The notes under the pieces were generated by a model, which had not been told where the DNA came from, did no database searches, and saw only the letters and a list, made by a program, of their open reading frames with translations. DNA of 64,000 nucleotides. Origin: a virus. Numbering within the stretch: position 1 is the first letter of the stretch; each line of letters starts with the position of its first letter. The position numbers and the translations under genes were made by a program. Positions 443 through 48,975 of this stretch are shown here, piece by piece. The stretch lies in the IMG/VR virus record IMGVR_UViG_3300026484_000295, positions 32,001 to 96,000 of that record; one strand, given 5' to 3'.

Positions 443-1171
443 ATGAAAAAAGAAACACTAGACGAATTAACTAAATTACAAGATGCCCTAAATGAGTTGA
501 TAACTCCAAATTGGAAATCTAATCGCAATGAATTAGATTTTATGGTTGCAAACCATCAGGAAATGGCAGAATTGATTGATACTGAATATATTGATACTGA
601 TGGACAAAAGCATGCATTAGGTTGGAAATGGTGGAAAGGTGCAGAGGGTCAAAGAACTATGGATTATGTTGATTGGGATTCAATGCATGAGGGTGTGAAA
701 AATAATATTAAAATCGAATTAACCGATCTACTATTTTTTACACTTTCTCAAAAGGTACTTGGAGACCTGACAGGTGAAGATGAAACTATACAACTTAGTG
801 AGAATGATTGGATTAACTTTGTAAGCATTTCAGCAAACAATTTACTACAACGTCCTGGTGCAGCTTTAATGCTAATCTTAGAATTAGCAAATAAAATCGG
901 CTTCAATATAAGTGCGTATTATATAGCAAAACATACTTTAAATCATATCAGGCAACTATCAGGCTATAAAGATGGGACATATGTAAAGGTTAATAAAGGT
1001 ATTGAAGACAATGAATTATTACACTCTGTTATTGAGCATATTTCTATCAATGACATAGATAATAACTTTGTAAACATAGCCGATAAAATTATTGATGATA
1101 CATATGATATTTTTAATGTTGATAATAAAGATAGAATGACTATTCTAAAATGGAAAAATATTCTAAAATAA
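443..1171 (+). CDS. dut: Dimeric all-alpha dUTPase (dUTPase_2 family)
   Basis: Motifs EMAELID, WKWWK, IKIELTDLLFF, KHTLNHIRQLSGYKDGTY-K and EDNE match the Campylobacter-type dUTPase. ATG 443 follows an AAGAGG SD. Confidence 0.85.
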   Translation: MKKETLDELTKLQDALNELITPNWKSNRNELDFMVANHQEMAELIDTEYIDTDGQKHALGWKWWKGAEGQRTMDYVDWDSMHEGVKNNIKIELTDLLFFTLSQKVLGDLTGEDETIQLSENDWINFVSISANNLLQRPGAALMLILELANKIGFNISAYYIAKHTLNHIRQLSGYKDGTYVKVNKGIEDNELLHSVIEHISINDIDNNFVNIADKIIDDTYDIFNVDNKDRMTILKWKNILK

Positions 1172-1181
1172 AGGCAAAGGT

Positions 1182-1607
1182 ATGGAAGATAAAAATCTTG
1201 AAGAATTATCAGAGAACGAAATAGTTGATGCATTGATTACACCTATACAACCTCCAGCTAATTCTTTAGAAGAAAGCGGAGATGAATTGAGAGCTATGGG
1301 TTTTAGAGATATTTCGGAGGCTGATGATAAACAAGTCATGGAAGAAGCTATGAAAAATATTCAGATTACTAAGCTTTTATCAGATGCATCTCGAGGAACA
1401 AAAGACAAAAAATCTATTAAAGATTACTTAGAACAACATATTAAATTTTTAGAAAGTGTGTCTCCAGGTAAATCATTAACAGACATTATTGAAAAAATAA
1501 CTGTTGAACATGCAAAAGCAATTTTAAAAACAACAGCAAAACAATCTGATGTTCCAGATGCAGTAATAAAAAAACATTTGAAAACATTGAAGAAAAAATA
1601 TACTTAA
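1182..1607 (+). CDS. Hypothetical protein
   Basis: 141-aa ORF with an SD, co-oriented with its neighbours. Confidence 0.7.
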   Translation: MEDKNLEELSENEIVDALITPIQPPANSLEESGDELRAMGFRDISEADDKQVMEEAMKNIQITKLLSDASRGTKDKKSIKDYLEQHIKFLESVSPGKSLTDIIEKITVEHAKAILKTTAKQSDVPDAVIKKHLKTLKKKYT

Positions 1608-1656
1608 TTGTATAATTATATATGAAAACAAATTAAAAACAAAAAGGATTTAAAAA

Positions 1657-1953
1657 ATGGCAATAGAATTTGATACAGAAGTTATGGAAAATGCAATGAG
1701 AGCATCACTAATTATCGCTCAACAAGAAGAAATTTTAAATGAAGCTTTAGGTACTCTTGCAGCAGATTTTGGTGTAAGTAAAGGTATCGCTAAAAAAATA
1801 ATTAAAGCTTTTGCAGCAGATAAAATTGAGAAAACTCAAGAAAAAATGGAAGATGAAAGAAGTGCATTAGCAAACGCAGATTTAATGTTAGAAGCTGTTG
1901 AAAATATGTCTTTTGAACCAGAAGATTTATTAGATGAAGAAACTGAAAACTAA
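1657..1953 (+). CDS. Small helical protein, possibly T4 DsbA/GapR-like DNA-binding protein
   Basis: 98 aa. The pattern 'EEILNEALGTLAADFGVSKGIAKKIIKAF' loosely resembles DsbA/DUF2312. TGTATAAT and an SD lie upstream. Confidence 0.4.
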   Translation: MAIEFDTEVMENAMRASLIIAQQEEILNEALGTLAADFGVSKGIAKKIIKAFAADKIEKTQEKMEDERSALANADLMLEAVENMSFEPEDLLDEETEN

Positions 1954-1975
1954 AATTTAAAGCAAGGTTTATTTT

Positions 1976-2806
1976 ATGAAAAATATCAAACATAATCAAT
2001 CTCATACTAACGAATATGAGATTGAAATCCCTATACCAGTAACAAAGCCTAAAAATATATCTGTCTTTGACGATCAACAAAGAAATATAGCGGTTTTGCG
2101 TATATATGGTGAAATTGATGAACCCTCAGAATATATTGAAGAACTATCAAAATTAAATAATTTATCACATCAATATGATGTTATTGAAATTACACTTAAT
2201 TCACCAGGTGGAAGTCTTAATACTGCTGTCGATTTAGCTTCAATTATTAATAACTTTCAGCATGTTGTGACTATTGGTAAAGGTGAAGTGGCTTCTGCTG
2301 CATTTATGATTTGGACTATGGGAGATATTAAGGTCGTTACTGATTACTCTATGTATATGGCTCATAGAGAATCATATGGCATGTATGGTAAAACTTCAGA
2401 ACATAAAGCTGCTGCCAATGTTTTTGGTGAAGTATATGAAGAATTATTTGAAGATTGTTTTGGTAATATTTTAACTAAAGAAGAAAAACAAATTGCAGAA
2501 AGAAGCGAAGCATGGATTTCCTATAAAGACTTACTATCTCGTCCAGGTGTAATTTCGTATGACAGTTATATTGAACCGGCTAATCCATATTCTATTATGG
2601 ACACTTATATTTCAAATGATGGTAAAATGTTTATGTTTGATAATGAAATCGGAGCATTTAGAACTATCAAAATTAAATATGGTAATGAGATTATTACCGA
2701 TATGACCGATTATCTTTATGGAATTACAGCAATTACAAAATTACCAAAGATTAAAAATAAACCTTCTAAAAATGTAAAATTAAAGAAAAAGAAGGATAAC
2801 AAATGA
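1976..2806 (+). CDS. ClpP/crotonase-fold protease-like protein
   Basis: IYGEID, LNSPGGS, VASAA (catalytic Ser) and MAH (His) motifs. Confidence 0.75.
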   Translation: MKNIKHNQSHTNEYEIEIPIPVTKPKNISVFDDQQRNIAVLRIYGEIDEPSEYIEELSKLNNLSHQYDVIEITLNSPGGSLNTAVDLASIINNFQHVVTIGKGEVASAAFMIWTMGDIKVVTDYSMYMAHRESYGMYGKTSEHKAAANVFGEVYEELFEDCFGNILTKEEKQIAERSEAWISYKDLLSRPGVISYDSYIEPANPYSIMDTYISNDGKMFMFDNEIGAFRTIKIKYGNEIITDMTDYLYGITAITKLPKIKNKPSKNVKLKKKKDNK

Positions 2807-3693
2807 TACCAAACCAACCAGTAAAAGTAGATGTCGAAGAAGCACAAGATTTAGCAAATATTAAAACATCAAAAATTAAAATAGGACTAGATGATATAGA
2901 CAATTTTATCAAAGATGAAATTAAAGATAGTTTTTATATGAAATTTTCTAATGGAGATTTTGAAAAATCATGGTCAGAGTATAAATCAATTCCTGTATTT
3001 TTAGCAAAAGGAAATATTTATGATCTGGTACCGGAAGGTATTTCTAAAGAGACACATTATGTATTACGTTTAGTTGCAACATGGCATGTTGAAAAAGCAT
3101 TAAATGCTTTAAAATTCGATACTGATAATGATGATAATCTTAAAATAGATACCTCTATGGGTAATATTGGTACAGCGGGACGTATAGCAAAAATATGGGC
3201 AGGAAATACTTTAGATTCTGAAAATATTAGAGAATATGGTGATGGAAGATTTACAAAAATGCCAAGACTTGCAGCATTTCCAGCATCTGAAAAAGATAGA
3301 AAACGACCTGTTACTGTTAATATTGAAAATGCTGGAATTGGAAGTGTATGTTCCCACCACTTCCTACCATTCAGTATTACGAATGATAATAATAGCAGAA
3401 TAGTAATTTCATACATTCCAAAAGATAAACTATTAGGCTTAAGTAAAATCGGCAGATTTGTAGAGTGGTGTTTAAATAGGCCGTCATTGCAAGAAGAGGT
3501 AACTGCACTAATTCATGAAAAAATTTCTAAAATTGCAGAAACTGAAGATGTGTACGTTGGTCTTTTTAATATTGTTCACAGTTGTGAAACTACTCGTGGT
3601 GCAAAACAATATTCTACTACTACAACTGAAGATTATAGCGGTGTATTTGATGACCCGATTATGAGAAGTACTATTTTAGATGGAATCAAATAA
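2803..3693 (+). CDS. folE: GTP cyclohydrolase I
   Basis: TAGRIAK, SVCSHHFLPF, GLSKIGR, RPSLQE and HSCETTRG Zn/GTP motifs. Confidence 0.9.
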   Translation: MIPNQPVKVDVEEAQDLANIKTSKIKIGLDDIDNFIKDEIKDSFYMKFSNGDFEKSWSEYKSIPVFLAKGNIYDLVPEGISKETHYVLRLVATWHVEKALNALKFDTDNDDNLKIDTSMGNIGTAGRIAKIWAGNTLDSENIREYGDGRFTKMPRLAAFPASEKDRKRPVTVNIENAGIGSVCSHHFLPFSITNDNNSRIVISYIPKDKLLGLSKIGRFVEWCLNRPSLQEEVTALIHEKISKIAETEDVYVGLFNIVHSCETTRGAKQYSTTTTEDYSGVFDDPIMRSTILDGIK

Positions 3694-9176: not shown

Positions 9177-9299
9177 ATGACACTATCTCACAAAAAAATA
9201 AAATCTATTAAAAAAGTTAAATATTATGATAAAGTATATGATATAACTATGAAGTCCAATCCACACACATTTTTTGCTAATAATATTCTAGTCCATAAC
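9177..9299 (+). mobile_element. Split intein C-terminal half (IntC, 41 aa)
   Basis: Has its own start codon and SD, ends His-Asn followed by Ser, and has no N-terminal intein blocks in frame upstream. Confidence 0.88.
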
Positions 9300-39894: not shown

Positions 39895-41616
39895 TTAATA
39901 TTTTTTTAAAATGCGTTTCCCACTATCTGTATAAATTAAAAATCCATTCATCAACATATTTTCTTTGATAGTTAGATTATTATCATATAATTCTATATAA
40001 GCCATTACATTAGTATGATCTAAACTATTACATGGAATAAATATATCCTTTTTATTATAATACAATGATTCCGAGATTGACCCTTCAAAACTAAAGTTAA
40101 TCTTAAAAAATAAATCTAAATATAAATTAAATCTCCTATCAATAGATACTATTATAGATTTATCAATCAATGATAAAATATCTATAAATGGATTAGTATT
40201 AAAATCTATTTCTGGATATATTGCAAATTGTTTAATTTCTATATTTTTTTTATGATTTGAAATCCCCATTACAGCTAGGAGTTCATTATTAAAAAATGCA
40301 CCATACATTTTTGTAAATGGTAAACTGATATTATATAAATGTTCATTTAAAAAATTAAAGCCCGTTGTTGTATCAATCATTTTAATTTCGAGTTCATCAA
40401 CATCCATTTTTTTTATTTTGTATTTTAATTTATAAAGTATAATTTGCTTGCAATACTCTTCATAATATGACCATTCGTATTCATAAAATTGTATTAAGTT
40501 TATATCTAAATTATCAGCATTTAAACTATTATCAATATAAGATGTATCTTTAGAAGTTGATGGCGATAAAATCTCTATAATAATATTTGTTTTTAAAATT
40601 TCTACTTTATCCAATTCTACTATCTTAAAATTATATCCTATCAAACCTAAAAAGCACTGGATTTTATTTAAAATATTTTTTCTATTATCTAGTATAGGAT
40701 TACATTGAGCACAAATAGGCAAATTATTAATATCAATTACGCTTTTAATTATACTATTACATGTCTTACATTTAAAAGTGTAAATATATTCGCTATCATA
40801 TATTTGCAAATCATCAATAAGAGTAACAAATATATTATCTTTAAATTTTTCAAAAATTTTATTATTAGTAGCGTTATCAATTTTTGATATAGATATAGGG
40901 TTTTTTTGTGCAGAATAACTGTCATATTTTGAAATAATTGTATTTTTACGTTTTTCTAAAATAGTTTTATTCTTTATAGGAAATATAGTTCCAAATTTTT
41001 TTAAATTTGTATCGTATGCTTTTTTTCTAATATAATCTAATGATAAAGGGTTGGGTACACCATACTTCATTAAATTAGTGGTTATTGTTTTATTTCTAAT
41101 TTCCTGAGATTGTTGAGCGTATTCCACACCATATTTCTCTATCATTGTTTTTTTTATTTTTTCTTTTGTACTATCCAATTTTGCAATAGAATCTACACCA
41201 TATTTTTCTTTAACTGTTTTTTTTATTTTTTCTTTTGTACTATCCAATTTTGCAATAGAATCTACACCATATTTTTCTTTAACCGATAATTTCAATTTCT
41301 TTTTTTGTTTATCATTTTGTAAAGGGTGTTCTGCCCCATAATTTTTAAGAAAGGTTATTTTTTGATTGTGTTCTTTTGAACAGCCTAAATTAAATATATT
41401 AGTACGTTCATTAAATGAGGCATACTTCGAACAATTTTTAAATTGGCATTTTGGAGGAGCATCCATATCCCTTATCAATAAATACCATTGGGCTTTTATA
41501 GATAAAGTCGGGTATCTCTTATTTAGATACCCAATAAGTTCTTTTGAAAAGTTTTTAAAATAAATATTTTTTTTAGTCTTATAATATTCAATTTCTGCTT
41601 TTAATTTAATTTCCAT
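39895..41616 (-). CDS. Hef-like homing-endonuclease-related protein with KYGV repeats (nuclease motif looks degenerate)
   Basis: Cys motifs, several (E/K)KYGV repeats, CKTC..CAQC and a C-terminal 'DRRF...DSG' pattern. Confidence 0.6.
   Translation of the reverse strand: MEIKLKAEIEYYKTKKNIYFKNFSKELIGYLNKRYPTLSIKAQWYLLIRDMDAPPKCQFKNCSKYASFNERTNIFNLGCSKEHNQKITFLKNYGAEHPLQNDKQKKKLKLSVKEKYGVDSIAKLDSTKEKIKKTVKEKYGVDSIAKLDSTKEKIKKTMIEKYGVEYAQQSQEIRNKTITTNLMKYGVPNPLSLDYIRKKAYDTNLKKFGTIFPIKNKTILEKRKNTIISKYDSYSAQKNPISISKIDNATNNKIFEKFKDNIFVTLIDDLQIYDSEYIYTFKCKTCNSIIKSVIDINNLPICAQCNPILDNRKNILNKIQCFLGLIGYNFKIVELDKVEILKTNIIIEILSPSTSKDTSYIDNSLNADNLDINLIQFYEYEWSYYEEYCKQIILYKLKYKIKKMDVDELEIKMIDTTTGFNFLNEHLYNISLPFTKMYGAFFNNELLAVMGISNHKKNIEIKQFAIYPEIDFNTNPFIDILSLIDKSIIVSIDRRFNLYLDLFFKINFSFEGSISESLYYNKKDIFIPCNSLDHTNVMAYIELYDNNLTIKENMLMNGFLIYTDSGKRILKKY
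41146..41283. repeat. Perfect 69-bp tandem duplication (2 copies, 23 aa)
   Basis: Units 41146-41214 and 41215-41283 each encode VKEKYGVDSIAKLDSTKEKIKKT. Confidence 0.9.
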
Positions 41617-41622
41617 AACATA

Positions 41623-42855
41623 TTATTTTGTAGCCAACCATTCTTTTCTGATTGAGGCATTATCATCAAAAAAGATTTGCATTAATTCATCTAAATGACC
41701 TTGATCGGTAATATTAAAGGCGTATTCCTCTAAATTTGAAAATACGTACTCCCAATCCGGTTTTTGCATAGAACCCAACCCTTTAAAGTAATCTATTTTC
41801 CACGAATCATCAACTGTACCAGATTCTTTAGCTTCATCAAATTCCTGTCTATTTGAATAATACAATACTTTTTTACCTTTTTTTGCAGCAATCATAGGAA
41901 ATACAATTCTATTGATAAATGGATTTTCATGATCCCAAAACAATTCTGGGAAATATTCATGAAATAAATTAACAACAAGATTATTAATGGCACTTCCGTC
42001 TGGGTCAGCATCAGTAGCTATATAAATTTTTGAATATTTTAATTTTGTATCAAAAGCAGGTCGCAACCATTTATGAAATCTATCTAATTTAGCATCAGAA
42101 TTAGCTTTTTTAATCTCTATATTTTGTGTTGATTTTGGTATTTTTTTAAGTAGCATGGATACCCTATGCCATTTTTTATCAAAATATACTTCATCAATAT
42201 CATTACAGATTAATGTTGTTCTACCTATTTTAACTTCATATTTAACACCATTTTTTCTAAATCCTCTAAATTCCCATTTTCTTCTAAAATGAAAGTAATC
42301 TGGATCTGAAAGATCAGAAATTGTAGCATCACTCGCTTCTATTTTTTGAATGTAGCCACGATATAATTTTTCATTATCTACTAATTCATCAACACTAACC
42401 CATTTTTTATTTAAGTGAAATTTATCTTCTGAGCTAACAATTACTGTTTTAATTATAGGCTCACCTTCCTTATCAACTTCAAAAATACTTTCAAATGTCA
42501 CCTCATATATGCGTGCATTATCACTAATCACCCAATCACCCATTTGTTCGTTAAACTCTAAATTTATTGCTGTAATTATATCAGCTACTTCATCATTATT
42601 CATTGCATCTATTGGTGCCTTACCATAGACATTTAAAACTTTACCTTTTAATGGCATTCCAGCTTGTGTTTCTGGATCTCTAATTTCAGTAAACGAAGCT
42701 ATTGCAGAATTATGTGTCAATAATCCATTTTCAAGAATAAATGTTTCATTATCTTCTACTTGTATATCATTCATATTAATGACTTTATTAGTACTATAAA
42801 CACTATTAATTTCTACCATATCAAATTCATCAATATTTATTTCATTCAATTGCAT
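41623..42855 (-). CDS. Split-intein C fragment fused to the type IIA topoisomerase TOPRIM portion (T4 gp39-C/gp60-like)
   Basis: aa 1-49 end DIQVEDNETFILENGLLTHN. The +1 residue is Ser of SA from the EGD-SA motif. PLKGKVLNV, ATDADPDG, YFKGLGS and RKEWL follow. Confidence 0.9.
   Translation of the reverse strand: MQLNEINIDEFDMVEINSVYSTNKVINMNDIQVEDNETFILENGLLTHNSAIASFTEIRDPETQAGMPLKGKVLNVYGKAPIDAMNNDEVADIITAINLEFNEQMGDWVISDNARIYEVTFESIFEVDKEGEPIIKTVIVSSEDKFHLNKKWVSVDELVDNEKLYRGYIQKIEASDATISDLSDPDYFHFRRKWEFRGFRKNGVKYEVKIGRTTLICNDIDEVYFDKKWHRVSMLLKKIPKSTQNIEIKKANSDAKLDRFHKWLRPAFDTKLKYSKIYIATDADPDGSAINNLVVNLFHEYFPELFWDHENPFINRIVFPMIAAKKGKKVLYYSNRQEFDEAKESGTVDDSWKIDYFKGLGSMQKPDWEYVFSNLEEYAFNITDQGHLDELMQIFFDDNASIRKEWLATK
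42709..42855 (-). mobile_element. Split intein C-terminal half (IntC, 49 aa)
   Basis: Has its own AAGGAG SD and ATG, carries blocks F/G and ends His-Asn followed by Ser. Confidence 0.87.
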
Positions 42856-44936: not shown

Positions 44937-45126
44937 TTACCCTTATAAATTTTTGTTGAAATTCTTCAATACTCCTAATATATGGGTTGTGATTGTCTTT
45001 ATTTAATTCAATATAGCCTATGGCTGGCACCCATTCATTATTAATTTGAATTGAACAAAAAAATTTAGGAATATAAATTTTATTATTCTTATAATGTCTA
45101 TAACCGGTATCAATTGTTACACTCAT
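44926..45126 (-). CDS. DUF1653-like protein
   Basis: YRHYKN...Y.RS..EF..KF pattern. Confidence 0.65.
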   Translation of the reverse strand: MSVTIDTGYRHYKNNKIYIPKFFCSIQINNEWVPAIGYIELNKDNHNPYIRSIEEFQQKFIRVNDE

Positions 45127-45380
45127 AATTGTACACCAGTCATATCAGCAACATATATAAGTAGATTTAATGTAGATTTACCATTTATAGGATTTACATC
45201 AGTAGAAATTTTTAATGTATCAACAATATCAATTGCCAACCATTTATTTTTCTTATCTTTCTCAGATAATGAATTACGTACTTCCAATCCAACAACTTGT
45301 TCTAAATCATTTAACATATCTATATCTATTGATATGCTTATAGCTTTCCATTTTCTATTTTTCCTATACATAGTTACCAT
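45123..45380 (-). CDS. Hypothetical protein
   Basis: 85-aa coupled ORF. Confidence 0.55.
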   Translation of the reverse strand: MVTMYRKNRKWKAISISIDIDMLNDLEQVVGLEVRNSLSEKDKKNKWLAIDIVDTLKISTDVNPINGKSTLNLLIYVADMTGVQL

Positions 45381-45388
45381 ACTATACC

Positions 45389-45619
45389 CTATTCTTGAAT
45401 TAATAGATGATCAATTTGAATTTTTAAATCTTCCATCTTTTTCATAGTTAATTCTTTAGTTTTAGAATCCCATATACCCCATAAATGCGAGGGTGATGAT
45501 TTGACTATCCGATCTGATGTTTTAAAAATATATTTGTAAACTCTTTCTTCCGGTTTAAATTCTATGTCTAAAATTGGTAAAGTTTTAAAAATTCTACCAT
45601 CATCTAATCTAGCAATCAT
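45389..45619 (-). CDS. Stand-alone intein (Hint) middle-fragment-like protein
   Basis: VYKYIFKTSDRIVKSSPSHLW resembles intein block B and KKMEDLKIQIDHL resembles N4. No N-terminal Cys block and no His-Asn end. Confidence 0.55.
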   Translation of the reverse strand: MIARLDDGRIFKTLPILDIEFKPEERVYKYIFKTSDRIVKSSPSHLWGIWDSKTKELTMKKMEDLKIQIDHLLIQE

Positions 45620-46047
45620 AATACACTTTCAACGAATGAAGGACATTCAATACTTATTTTTTTATATAAATCTTTATGTATATTTAAAATATTATTCATT
45701 TTTTTAATAATATCATCCGATACATATAAAAAATATTTTTCTGCATCATCTCGAGTCTTAAAAAATTTAAGCCCTTTTGAATTTGCTTCCCATCTAGATA
45801 ATTTAGTACCATCTTTCATTACAAGTGTTAAACGTGTTATAGAATCATCATCACACCAATAGCTTCGATCGCCTATTTCGATTGAAACTTCTTGTGGCTC
45901 GATGTAATCAACATCTACATGCTGTTTTTCATCACCCGCATATTTCTCAATTCTTATTCCAGAAACCCAAAAATTCTTATTCTCTTTTTTCACAGCCGAA
46001 CGTAAAACAGTTTTTGGAGAAACTTGTGTAATTACTCTTGACATCAT
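45616..46047 (-). CDS. Hypothetical protein
   Basis: 143-aa coupled ORF. Confidence 0.6.
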   Translation of the reverse strand: MMSRVITQVSPKTVLRSAVKKENKNFWVSGIRIEKYAGDEKQHVDVDYIEPQEVSIEIGDRSYWCDDDSITRLTLVMKDGTKLSRWEANSKGLKFFKTRDDAEKYFLYVSDDIIKKMNNILNIHKDLYKKISIECPSFVESVL

Positions 46048-46704: not shown

Positions 46705-48975
46705 TTAGTAACCCTGAATTACATATCTTATTTGTTCGGCGTCGCCACTAGCTAATGAAATTTTTACTGTATTTACATCAATAACTTCAGTTACAACCAA
46801 ATCAAACCGCCATACAGATTCTGTAGAATCATATACCTGTACTGAGACATCAACAAATTCAGTATTAAGATTATGGGCAATAGTATATGTATCTGATGCA
46901 TCTTCTTCTGCCACTTCACCTTTAACATATCTATTTTCAATATCATTTATTTTTGTATTCACTAATGAAGCTATACCATCCAATGTATTTTTTAGTGAAT
47001 CAGCATTTAATTCAATTGTTGGATTAACTATATTTGTATCAGATTCTGTATATCCTTCATATCCAACAAAATTAGTACCATTACCAGCAGTAGTAGCAAT
47101 CAAATTATCATAATTTGTTTTAATAGTATTATCTAAAAGAATATCAGCATTAAATAATGATGTTGCACTAGAAATATAATTTGTTGTTGAATCAGCATTA
47201 TAAGTATCAGATGATAAACCAGATGCAGAATTAACATTATCAATTCTTTCTCCCAATGCATTATCATTAGAGGTTCTTATTGATATTTCATCATCGATAT
47301 TTGTTTGTAAATTTGTTTCAGCATTAGTTGCTCTCGTAACTTCATTATCAATATTTGAATCCACTTCATTGATTGCATTTACTAAAGTATCTTTTGCTTC
47401 AGTAGTTAAATTATCTAAATCGCCAACTTTACCATCTACTTGACTTTCAATATTTGTAACTCTCGAATCGATAGATGTAATATCGTCTGAATTAGTTTTA
47501 ATAGCAGAATCCAATGTTACTGTGGCATTATGAACACTTGTTGCAGATGAAATATAATTTGTTAAAGCTTCAACAACATAGGTGCCATCATCATTTAATC
47601 CTGTTCCAGTTTCAATTCTATCAATTTCAGATTGTAGTGATGTATTAGCATTAGTTCTATTTGTAACCTCATCATCAATATGAGCATCAACTTCATTGAT
47701 TGCATTTACTAAAGTATCTTTTGCATCAGTAGTTAAATCAGCTAAATCACCAGTTGCACCACCAACGTCAGACTCTAAATCAGATATTCTATCATCCAAT
47801 GCATTATCAGCATCTGTTCTAGCCGTAACTTCATTATCAATATTTGTTTGCAATGTATTATCTGCATTAGTTCTATTTGTGGTTTCATCCACTAAGTCTG
47901 AGGAAACAGTATCAATATTTGATTGTAATATATTATCCGCAGTATCAACATATTCTTCTGTTGCTATTTTTTTAAGTGTACCATTATCTTGTACTTCAAC
48001 TTGATCTAATGTTTCATTCCATTGAATTATTGTTGTTAATCCATCATTTCCTCTATCAACCTCTAATCCTGCATTTTCAGTTGGATCAACAGCACCAATA
48101 CCATCATTCAATGTTATAATATTATCAGCTACTTTTAATGTTTCAGTTTCTATTGTTGTTGTTGTACCACTTACAGTTAAATCACCATGAATAATTAAAT
48201 TATTTGAAAATGTAGTATCTGCAGCAACAGTTTGTGATGTAGAAGTCGTTTTATTTAAATAATTATTTGATAAATCATTATTAGTATCTATAATTGATTG
48301 AGTATTAGTATCAGTATTAGTATCGATTTCATTAATTGCATTTACTAATGTATCTTTTGTGTCAGTAGTTAAAGTGGTTAAATCTCCTTCTACTGATATT
48401 GCTCTAGATATTTCATTATCGATATTGGTTGTATTAGTATCAGCATTAGTATCGATTTCATTAATTGCATTTACTAATGTATCTTTTGTGTCAGTAGTTA
48501 AAGTGGTTAAATCTCCTTCTACTGATATTGCTCTAGATATTTCATTATCGATATTGGTTGTATTAGTATCAGCATTAGTATCGATTTCATTAATTGCATT
48601 TACTAATGTATCTTTTGTGTCAGTAGTTAAAGTGGTTAAATCTCCTTCTACTGATATTGCTCTAGATATTTCATTATCGATATTGGTTTGTATTGTTGTA
48701 TCTGCTGTAGTTCTATCTGATATTTCTTGAGCAATTGCATCAGTATTAGCTTGTACGTCAGCACTATTATCAATACCAATAGGTTTTATTTCAACTGATG
48801 TTCCAGCTTCATCTAAAAATCCACCTTTAAACGTTTTATCAGTATTATTAAACCATAAACGTCCAACAGACTCTACGCCTGTTAATGATGGGTCTGATGT
48901 TAAATTCTCAATTACTAGATTTGAAAACTTACTATTTTTAGCGAGTTCGGGATTATGTAATTTTATTTTAGCCAT
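46705..48975 (-). CDS. Coiled-coil fibre protein with internal repeats
   Basis: Five GDLxxLTTxxKDTLVNAINE repeats; GLEVDRG module; C-terminal HNLNT domain. Confidence 0.7.
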   Translation of the reverse strand: MAKIKLHNPELAKNSKFSNLVIENLTSDPSLTGVESVGRLWFNNTDKTFKGGFLDEAGTSVEIKPIGIDNSADVQANTDAIAQEISDRTTADTTIQTNIDNEISRAISVEGDLTTLTTDTKDTLVNAINEIDTNADTNTTNIDNEISRAISVEGDLTTLTTDTKDTLVNAINEIDTNADTNTTNIDNEISRAISVEGDLTTLTTDTKDTLVNAINEIDTNTDTNTQSIIDTNNDLSNNYLNKTTSTSQTVAADTTFSNNLIIHGDLTVSGTTTTIETETLKVADNIITLNDGIGAVDPTENAGLEVDRGNDGLTTIIQWNETLDQVEVQDNGTLKKIATEEYVDTADNILQSNIDTVSSDLVDETTNRTNADNTLQTNIDNEVTARTDADNALDDRISDLESDVGGATGDLADLTTDAKDTLVNAINEVDAHIDDEVTNRTNANTSLQSEIDRIETGTGLNDDGTYVVEALTNYISSATSVHNATVTLDSAIKTNSDDITSIDSRVTNIESQVDGKVGDLDNLTTEAKDTLVNAINEVDSNIDNEVTRATNAETNLQTNIDDEISIRTSNDNALGERIDNVNSASGLSSDTYNADSTTNYISSATSLFNADILLDNTIKTNYDNLIATTAGNGTNFVGYEGYTESDTNIVNPTIELNADSLKNTLDGIASLVNTKINDIENRYVKGEVAEEDASDTYTIAHNLNTEFVDVSVQVYDSTESVWRFDLVVTEVIDVNTVKISLASGDAEQIRYVIQGY
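48302..48688. repeat. Three near-perfect 129-bp tandem repeats (43 aa)
   Basis: Units start at 48302, 48431 and 48560; one mismatch was noticed. Confidence 0.9.

Follow-up and report, generated by a model that had tools for sequence, protein, structure and literature searches.

Can the middle of an intein, without either of its ends and without a host protein, exist as a gene in its own right? Inteins are known as one-piece or two-piece elements, and fragments that carry no extein are usually dismissed as debris. The question is raised by a 76-aa open reading frame in the window, by which we mean the whole 64,000-nucleotide stretch of DNA analysed here (G000:32001-96000, where G000 is a 172-kb IMG/VR phage record with an estimated completeness of 61%). 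The source is a giant marine phage with the gene content of a T4-like jumbo phage (ClpP, MazG, RNR, topoisomerase II and PolB). The first-pass annotation read the ORF as the central part of a Hint domain, and proposed that it completes a three-piece intein in trans, possibly one shared between targets, or else acts as a regulator of splicing. The features at the centre of the question are the following:

45389-45619, minus strand: gene for the 76-aa free-standing, Hint-like middle fragment (from the ORF, an AF2 model and its family)
45479-45499, minus strand: block-B-like motif SSPSHLW within that gene (residues 41-47), which fits [ST]xxHxW in a 36-sequence alignment
45616-46047, minus strand: upstream 143-aa gene, overlapped through ATGA; neither an N-extein nor a short IntN
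45123-45380, minus strand: 85-aa gene that lies downstream and usually neighbours members of the family; not an IntC
41623-42855, minus strand: C half of topoisomerase II, with a 49-aa IntC ending THN/S; an ordinary two-piece partner

The ORF itself was described correctly, to which it may be added that it lies on the minus strand. Its ATG overlaps the TGA of the upstream 143-aa ORF as ATGA, and the codons ahead of it in its own frame read TGA-AAG-TGT-ATT-ATG, which places a stop 3 codons ahead of the start. An in-frame stop occurs 2-6 codons 5' of the ATG at all six family loci examined. No slippery site is present at the ATGA overlap, and a scan for promoters and terminators yielded a site count not above that of shuffled sequence. 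The 2.5-kb spacing from the topoisomerase IntC gene is also accurate, with 2,534 bp separating the start of that gene (42855) from the end of the 76-aa ORF.

The same two overlapping ORFs are found in a relative, G001 (IMGVR_UViG_3300026521_000003, 290 kb), where the ATGA arrangement is kept and the amino-acid identity is 95% for the 76-aa protein and 92% for the 143-aa protein. The two copies of the 76-aa gene are 93% identical in nucleotides, with 13 synonymous and 4 non-synonymous differences, and the resulting dN/dS is 0.06; the comparable values between G000 and G001 are 0.07 for MazG and 0.13 for the upstream 143-aa gene. An exhaustive phmmer search of 1.8 billion representatives returned seven relatives, each of 77-85 aa, together with one WD40 protein. 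A profile search recovered 34 family clusters (at 90% identity) with lengths of 76-85 aa, all of them stand-alone and without a Pfam domain, and some members sit on contigs of 179-347 kb. Neither the exhaustive phmmer search nor a profile search restricted to longer proteins found a longer or fused relative, and tblastn against GenBank phages gave no match to the 76-aa protein.

The 76-aa ORF is a real, selectively maintained gene, not debris. A decaying, functionless remnant of a broken intein-bearing gene would, like this ORF, be without everything that splicing needs, and a place among abundant mobile intein and endonuclease elements, with an IntC gene 2.5 kb away, would suit it. Such a remnant would not be expected to show the low dN/dS just given, nor to remain intact, with start and end unchanged, in 34 clusters down to about 40% identity while its flanking genes vary among lineages. 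We regard this explanation as extremely improbable.

Conservation within the family is concentrated in a few places. Only Y28, H45 and W47 are invariant in the 36-sequence alignment, while L5, D7, G8, R9, F11, T13, V27, K29, T34, R37, S41, S42, V49, W50, M62, L72 and L73 are conserved in at least 90% of the sequences. The best-conserved regions are an N-terminal hairpin and block B, which has the form [ST]xxH, with S42 replaced by Thr in the member P0008. The family was found only in an intein-rich clade of phages. Because all of the family loci recovered come from one syntenic clade, the co-occurrence of the family with a split topoisomerase is not independent evidence.

Is the family related to Hint domains at all? 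The proposed Hint-like middle with a block-B His is supported by Pfam, by a family HMM, by VIA-align structural comparison and by the ESM Atlas, each of these lines being weak. The two most divergent members, P0003 and P0008, match the Pfam Intein_splicing model (PF14890, Hint clan) over profile positions 38-91 (E 0.0024) and 39-85 (E 0.0026), at about 18 bits. The gathering threshold of 35.8 bits is not reached, since the best member scores 18.1, and only 2 of the 36 members match; the protein encoded in the window matches nothing in Pfam or PHROG, and 34 of the 36 have no Pfam match. Genuine split pieces from the same phages score no better: a genuine TerL IntC of this clade matches Intein_splicing with an E value of 0.0014 (18.9 bits, positions 43-93), and the genuine topoisomerase IntN does not match the model.

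The family HMM was run against 4,890 stop-to-stop ORFs from G000, G001 and a third record, G002, and the topoisomerase N-half gene gave the best non-self match, at E 6.8e-4. In that match, residues 46-92 of the 95-residue topoisomerase IntN pair with family positions 29-75, His45 falls on the block-B His, and the alignment reaches within three residues of both C termini. Next among the intein-bearing ORFs come the PolB IntNs, aligned on VTEDHSIMV. Comparison by hhalign with five atypical TerL IntCs also aligned block B, with an E value of 0.02 when 9 family sequences were used and 0.095 with 36.

The AF2 model of the 76-aa protein is all-beta and compact, with a pLDDT of 93 from only 9 sequences. 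In a wide VIA-align search of 48,161 chains with this model, inteins made up 14 of the top 50 and the Npu intein came first (Z 5.6, 59 aa, rmsd 2.5), and a PolII mini-intein also matched (Z 4.8, 48 aa, rmsd 1.7). All of the intein matches map between approximately residues 28 and 130. As a control, the model of the neighbouring 85-aa protein was put through the same wide search and drew no intein into its top 50. Feature matches in the ESM Atlas were to short viral proteins with Intein_splicing, Hint_2 or PT-HINT, at scores of 0.90 or below. Against these matches, a Foldseek search of the model gave E > 0.6, and profile searches of PDB sequences found no intein. A BFVD fold search produced nothing useful.

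A small phage beta protein unrelated to inteins, in which the "block B" and the order of strands resemble a Hint domain by chance, would account for the sub-threshold Pfam score, the Foldseek E value, the structural Z scores (all below 6) and the failure to reach a PDB intein by profile. The same motif also drew the spurious WD40 match noted above. That protein, P0005, is a 1,414-aa bacterial WD40 protein in which 8 repeats were matched through VY..F...G.R.VT.S.DHTARVWD. A WD40 relationship was rejected as motif-level noise, as the phmmer match rests on the repeated DHTARVWD-type motif, and the match indicates that the block-B motif alone readily finds unrelated beta proteins. However, five independent methods agree on both the family and the sub-region, bona fide intein pieces of these phages do no better in Pfam, the best non-self ORF for the family profile is a true IntN aligned in register, and the control model drew no inteins. 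The Hint resemblance exceeds chance, and a chance likeness is unlikely to be the explanation. Hint ancestry of the family is likely, on several weak but concordant lines among which there is no single strong test.

One fold covers the model more widely than any intein. The AXH domain superposes on 64-68 of the 76 residues (rmsd 1.9-2.8, Z 5.3-5.8), while inteins superpose well only over residues 25-76; Pfam gave no sequence match to AXH (ataxin-1/HBP1). This superposition, the compact and closed AF2 model, the loss of the basic tail that faces the IntC and the presence of the 85-aa gene next to the 76-aa gene in most lineages could all be understood if the protein were a Hint-derived but autonomous small beta domain with a job unrelated to splicing, perhaps one carried out with its 85-aa neighbour. 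Such an exaptation would leave the retention of [ST]xxH unexplained, along with the restriction of the family to an intein-rich phage clade, and the G002 lineage keeps the 76-aa gene without the 85-aa partner. A confident, self-contained AF2 domain suits an autonomous protein as well as it suits a docking fragment. We consider exaptation a doubtful possibility, but both it and a chance likeness are rivals to be taken seriously.

The immediate neighbours might also be thought to supply the missing ends of the intein. The idea that the 143-aa, 76-aa and 85-aa genes together represent one broken intein gene was rejected, as the Cys and Asn of the supposed junctions are not conserved. The Cys in the tail of the 143-aa protein (...E-C-PSFVESVL) gives way to Tyr in one homologue (92% identical) and to Asp in another (40% identical), and at the start of the 85-aa protein (MVTMYRKNRKWKAISISIDIDMLNDLEQVVGLEVRN/S), the "VRN/S" of the window copy reads QDNL, REKL or KETL in homologues. 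Further evidence against the trio is that in other lineages each of the two neighbours is absent or has another gene in its place, quite apart from the lack of a slippery site. In L034, L050 and L052, the gene immediately upstream of the family member is not the 143-aa one. The 85-aa gene, which in 5 of 6 lineages abuts or overlaps the 76-aa gene, is replaced in G002.

Some features of these neighbours can be recorded in their own right. In the 143-aa family the C-terminal tail is conserved as [C/Y/D]P[S/A/H]F..[S/E][V/I]L, and the window's protein shows weak matches only, to DUF3212 (E 0.014) and phrog_470 (E 0.01). The AF2 model of the 85-aa protein has a beta-alpha-beta-beta arrangement (pLDDT 76) and likewise gave only weak matches, to the Rpb7 N-domain and dodecin; the invariant residues of its family include R6, K7, N8, K10, W47, D51, D54, N63, P64, A78, D79 and G82. 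In every related locus, the cluster of small genes has upstream of it a conserved gene for a 756-aa fibre-like protein with near-identical tandem repeats (NIDNEISRAISVEGDLTTLTTDTKDTLVNAINEIDTNADTNTT; window 46705-48975, minus strand).

Where in an intein would the 76-aa fragment belong? The N terminus of the family (M-x-x-x-L-x-D-G-R-x-F) aligns with the first residues of the long TerL IntCs of this clade, and hence with the atypical split site; the IntC starts used in this comparison read ...VLTPDGWSDF... and ...IKTTEGYKSF.... The C terminus (...HELLIQ) matches the last residues of the topoisomerase IntN (...HKLLRKKGL), at the canonical split site. The family covers the segment from the N-terminal split site to the canonical one, as a middle piece should, and in these alignments the fragment corresponds to the part of an intein between the natural split sites, from about residue 30 (after block A) to about residue 100.

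What lies outside those limits is missing from the protein, just as the first-pass annotation had stated for block A, blocks F and G and the extein. The protein starts at Met1, with no Cys1 or Ser1 joined to an N-extein. It ends ...DHLLIQE in the window, with no HN[CST] and no (H)N followed by a Cys, Ser or Thr C-extein, nor does the gene downstream show a conserved Asn junction. Lacking Cys1, the block F/G Asn and any extein, the 76-aa protein cannot splice or cleave anything by itself. In addition, where the topoisomerase IntN ends in a basic tail, HKLLRKKGL, the counterpart is acidic, HELLIQGWED. The topoisomerase IntC is very acidic, and the acidic tail argues against binding to it.

The invariant Trp raises the possibility of a different intein chemistry. 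Class 3 inteins, as Tori et al. are said to have described in 2010, have a Trp-Cys-Thr triplet (block B position 12, F4 and G5). The Trp at block B position 12 is present in the family as HxW, with W47 invariant in 36 sequences. The Cys at F4 is not found, as the protein has no block F and all of the IntCs seen have Asp at F4, and a pattern scan of G000, G001 and G002 found no class-3-like IntC.

The decisive question for a three-piece intein is whether any N and C pieces in these phages are without a middle of their own. The phage joins several essential enzymes by split inteins, and the pieces found in the three records, besides the topoisomerase C half listed above, are:

G001:176790-178421: N half of topoisomerase II, ending SEGD/CIDSNTK..., with a 95-aa IntN that has block B FSKNHKH
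G000:20144-20959, outside the window: PolB IntN, 118 aa, with its own block B VTEDHSIMV
9177-10331 of the window, plus strand: C fragment of PolB, with a 41-aa IntC ending VHN/S; an ordinary two-piece partner
G001:275182-275802 (plus), 279367-280170 (plus) and 196327-197670 (minus), loci L015-L029: TerL in three genes with two atypical inteins, IntN 33 + IntC 112 aa and IntN 41 + IntC 114 aa
G002:184957-185400 (minus), 169358-170113 (minus), 230001-230798 (plus) and 200201-201526 (minus), loci L059-L074: TerL in four genes with three atypical inteins, 32+117, 33+108 and about 46+111 aa
G001:225480-226100, plus strand, L026/L031: C half of a DnaB/gp41-type helicase, with a 36-38-aa IntC (MILDEIVNIEK...ILTHN/S)
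G002:159019-159603, minus strand: the same type of helicase IntC

The proposal that the 76-aa protein completes the nearby topoisomerase intein does not survive this inventory, because the N half in G001 has a 95-aa IntN with its own block B. IntNs of about 25-35 aa on the partner genes had been expected if a separate middle were needed, and IntNs of about 100 aa with a block B if it were not; those of topoisomerase (95 aa) and PolB (118 aa) are not short and carry a block B each. Block-A-only IntNs were found only in TerL (two in G001 and three in G002), and the three-piece reading fails there as well: each of these short IntNs (32-46 aa) is paired with a long IntC (108-117 aa) that carries its own block B. 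Two pieces suffice to make up each of the topoisomerase, PolB and TerL inteins, so the 76-aa fragment is not an obligatory third piece for any of them. What stands of the original interpretation is a maintained, free-standing, extein-less, Hint-like middle; what falls is its role as the third piece of the topoisomerase intein.

Several other observations on the split genes may be mentioned here. The genes for TerL, the large terminase, lie far apart in the relatives, spread across as much as about 80 kb and over both strands, and one middle TerL gene opens with an IntC and closes with an IntN. The G002 lineage is richer in inteins, with a 1,066-aa ORF that carries two inteins (G002:63427-66627, plus strand), a ribonucleotide reductase with several intein pieces (106990-110468, plus) and a 682-aa ORF with a contiguous intein (1110-3158, minus). 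Genes for large proteins with KYGV-type repeats adjoin split-intein genes, one after the topoisomerase C half (window 39895-41616, minus; matching Pfam DUF7487) and one between the TerL pieces (G001:275793-277973, plus). They are possibly homing-endonuclease-like genes that stand free in "fractured gene" loci.

The helicase is the obvious remaining candidate for a true middle piece, that is, for a natural three-piece split intein in which the 76-aa protein is obligatory. Its IntC occurs in both G001 and G002, and the N half was found in none of G000, G001 and G002 by searches with Pfam DnaB_C, phrog_239 and the full PA5oct helicase, nor in the 15.9 kb of G000 that extend past the start of G001. 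An N piece, a C piece or both would then fall in the approximately 10% of the genome that lies outside the records. The helicase IntC of G001 and G002 closely resembles gp41-1. The natural IntN of gp41-1 is a full 88 aa, and this counts against a middle-less helicase intein. Moreover, the family profile resembles the topoisomerase IntN and not the helicase intein, and no unpaired block-A-only IntN was found in the approximately 305 kb searched of a genome estimated at 335 kb.

The anatomy of the family is more favourable to an obligatory middle piece. The two ends of the fragment coincide with both natural split sites, and both split types are in use by the same phages. The block-B TxxH, needed only for chemistry at the N junction, is among the few invariants in 36 sequences. 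In addition, when the IntNs of gp41-1 and Npu are cut artificially into N and M pieces, they still splice (10.1101/2023.01.30.526203). Against these points must be set the inspected inteins that are complete without the 76-aa protein, namely topoisomerase, PolB, two of TerL in G001 and three of TerL in G002. We judge an obligatory third piece to be very unlikely.

Engineered systems provide the closest parallels for such a piece. Three-piece split inteins were engineered by Sun, Yang & Liu in 2004, as cited in 10.1101/2023.01.30.526203, and M-intein systems have been built from Ssp/Rma DnaB, Npu DnaE and gp41-1 (10.1101/2023.01.30.526203). With gp41-1 and Npu, the N, M and C pieces splice only when all three are present, and natural three-piece inteins are not proven, according to the same source (10.1101/2023.01.30.526203). 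Like an engineered M piece, the 76-aa protein has no extein, carries block B, is encoded by its own cistron, and has as its limits an N-terminal cut that follows block A and the canonical one ahead of blocks F and G. Engineered M pieces, however, are required by partners that have no middle, whereas the candidate partners inspected for the 76-aa protein have their own; no dependent N and C pair was found in G000, G001 or G002.

Two kinds of natural split intein are also similar in part. Atypical TerL split inteins include AceL-TerL (25+104 aa) and GOS-TerL (37+115 aa) (PMC11766414), and the TerL layout of this clade, with a short IntN and a long IntC carrying block B, is of the same type (PMC11766414). 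The likeness of the 76-aa N terminus to the starts of the clade's long TerL IntCs resides in x-L-x-D-G-R-x-F, and the spacing to block B is similar too, with 37 residues from Gly to His in the 76-aa protein against 31-32 in those IntCs. Atypical IntCs, however, run through blocks F and G into the C-extein, whereas the 76-aa protein stops at the canonical split site. The other kind comprises the canonical IntNs known from "fractured genes" in phages (gp41-1, NrdJ-1 and others; Dassa et al. 2009, PMC2677866) and the phage's own topoisomerase IntN, residues 46-92 of which give the best sequence match to the family. Unlike a canonical IntN, the 76-aa protein has no N-extein, no block A and no Cys1, and its tail is acidic instead of basic. 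The 76-aa gene is probably a truncated paralogue of a canonical IntN, because its closest detectable relative within the phage is the topoisomerase IntN.

A third parallel comes from engineered caged split inteins, in which one half of a split intein is bound by a truncated fragment of its partner and cannot assemble until that fragment is displaced (PMC12321220). The 76-aa protein similarly is a catalytically incompetent, truncated fragment that could occupy the docking surface of a half. The engineered cages are fused in cis to the half that they block, whereas the 76-aa protein is a separate polypeptide.

We tentatively favour the interpretation that the 76-aa protein is a non-splicing Hint fragment that docks in trans and modulates split inteins, which comes close to the splicing regulator offered as an alternative in the first-pass annotation, and we prefer it to the obligatory third piece. 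The fragment would dock onto a complementary Hint fragment, of which intein-rich phages have an abundance, and its partner might be a short block-A-only IntN or a short IntC. Once docked, it would act as a modulator, the natural counterpart of the engineered truncated-partner "cage", and could delay, buffer or chaperone the assembly of split-intein halves.

Not every feature of the family fits so simple a binding role. A pure binder has no obvious need for the block-B His, and its invariance counts against one. In the Hint fold, the side formed by the conserved N-terminal hairpin and block B is turned towards block A and the N junction, and not towards the C-terminal strands by which an IntC is held. 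This conservation on the side that faces block A, together with the acidic tail, keeps a catalytic reading alive and weakens the notion of a simple IntC decoy. A natural three-piece intein with this protein as its middle (used by the helicase, or shared among several pairs of short IntN and short IntC), or a dedicated natural "cage" by which the trans-splicing of essential phage enzymes is timed, seems quite unlikely to us. We know of neither a natural three-piece middle nor a dedicated natural cage as a published system.

If the protein were after all an unrelated beta domain, the finding would reduce to an ordinary small phage protein family. What has been found is a probable middle-of-intein fragment that is kept as a gene across an intein-rich clade of giant phages, under strong purifying selection and with its block-B His invariant. 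The 76-aa protein would offer a naturally evolved part for engineered caged and three-piece intein systems. For the phages themselves, any of the roles considered here, whether as gatekeeper, third piece or recruited Hint half, would be a new layer in natural protein splicing.
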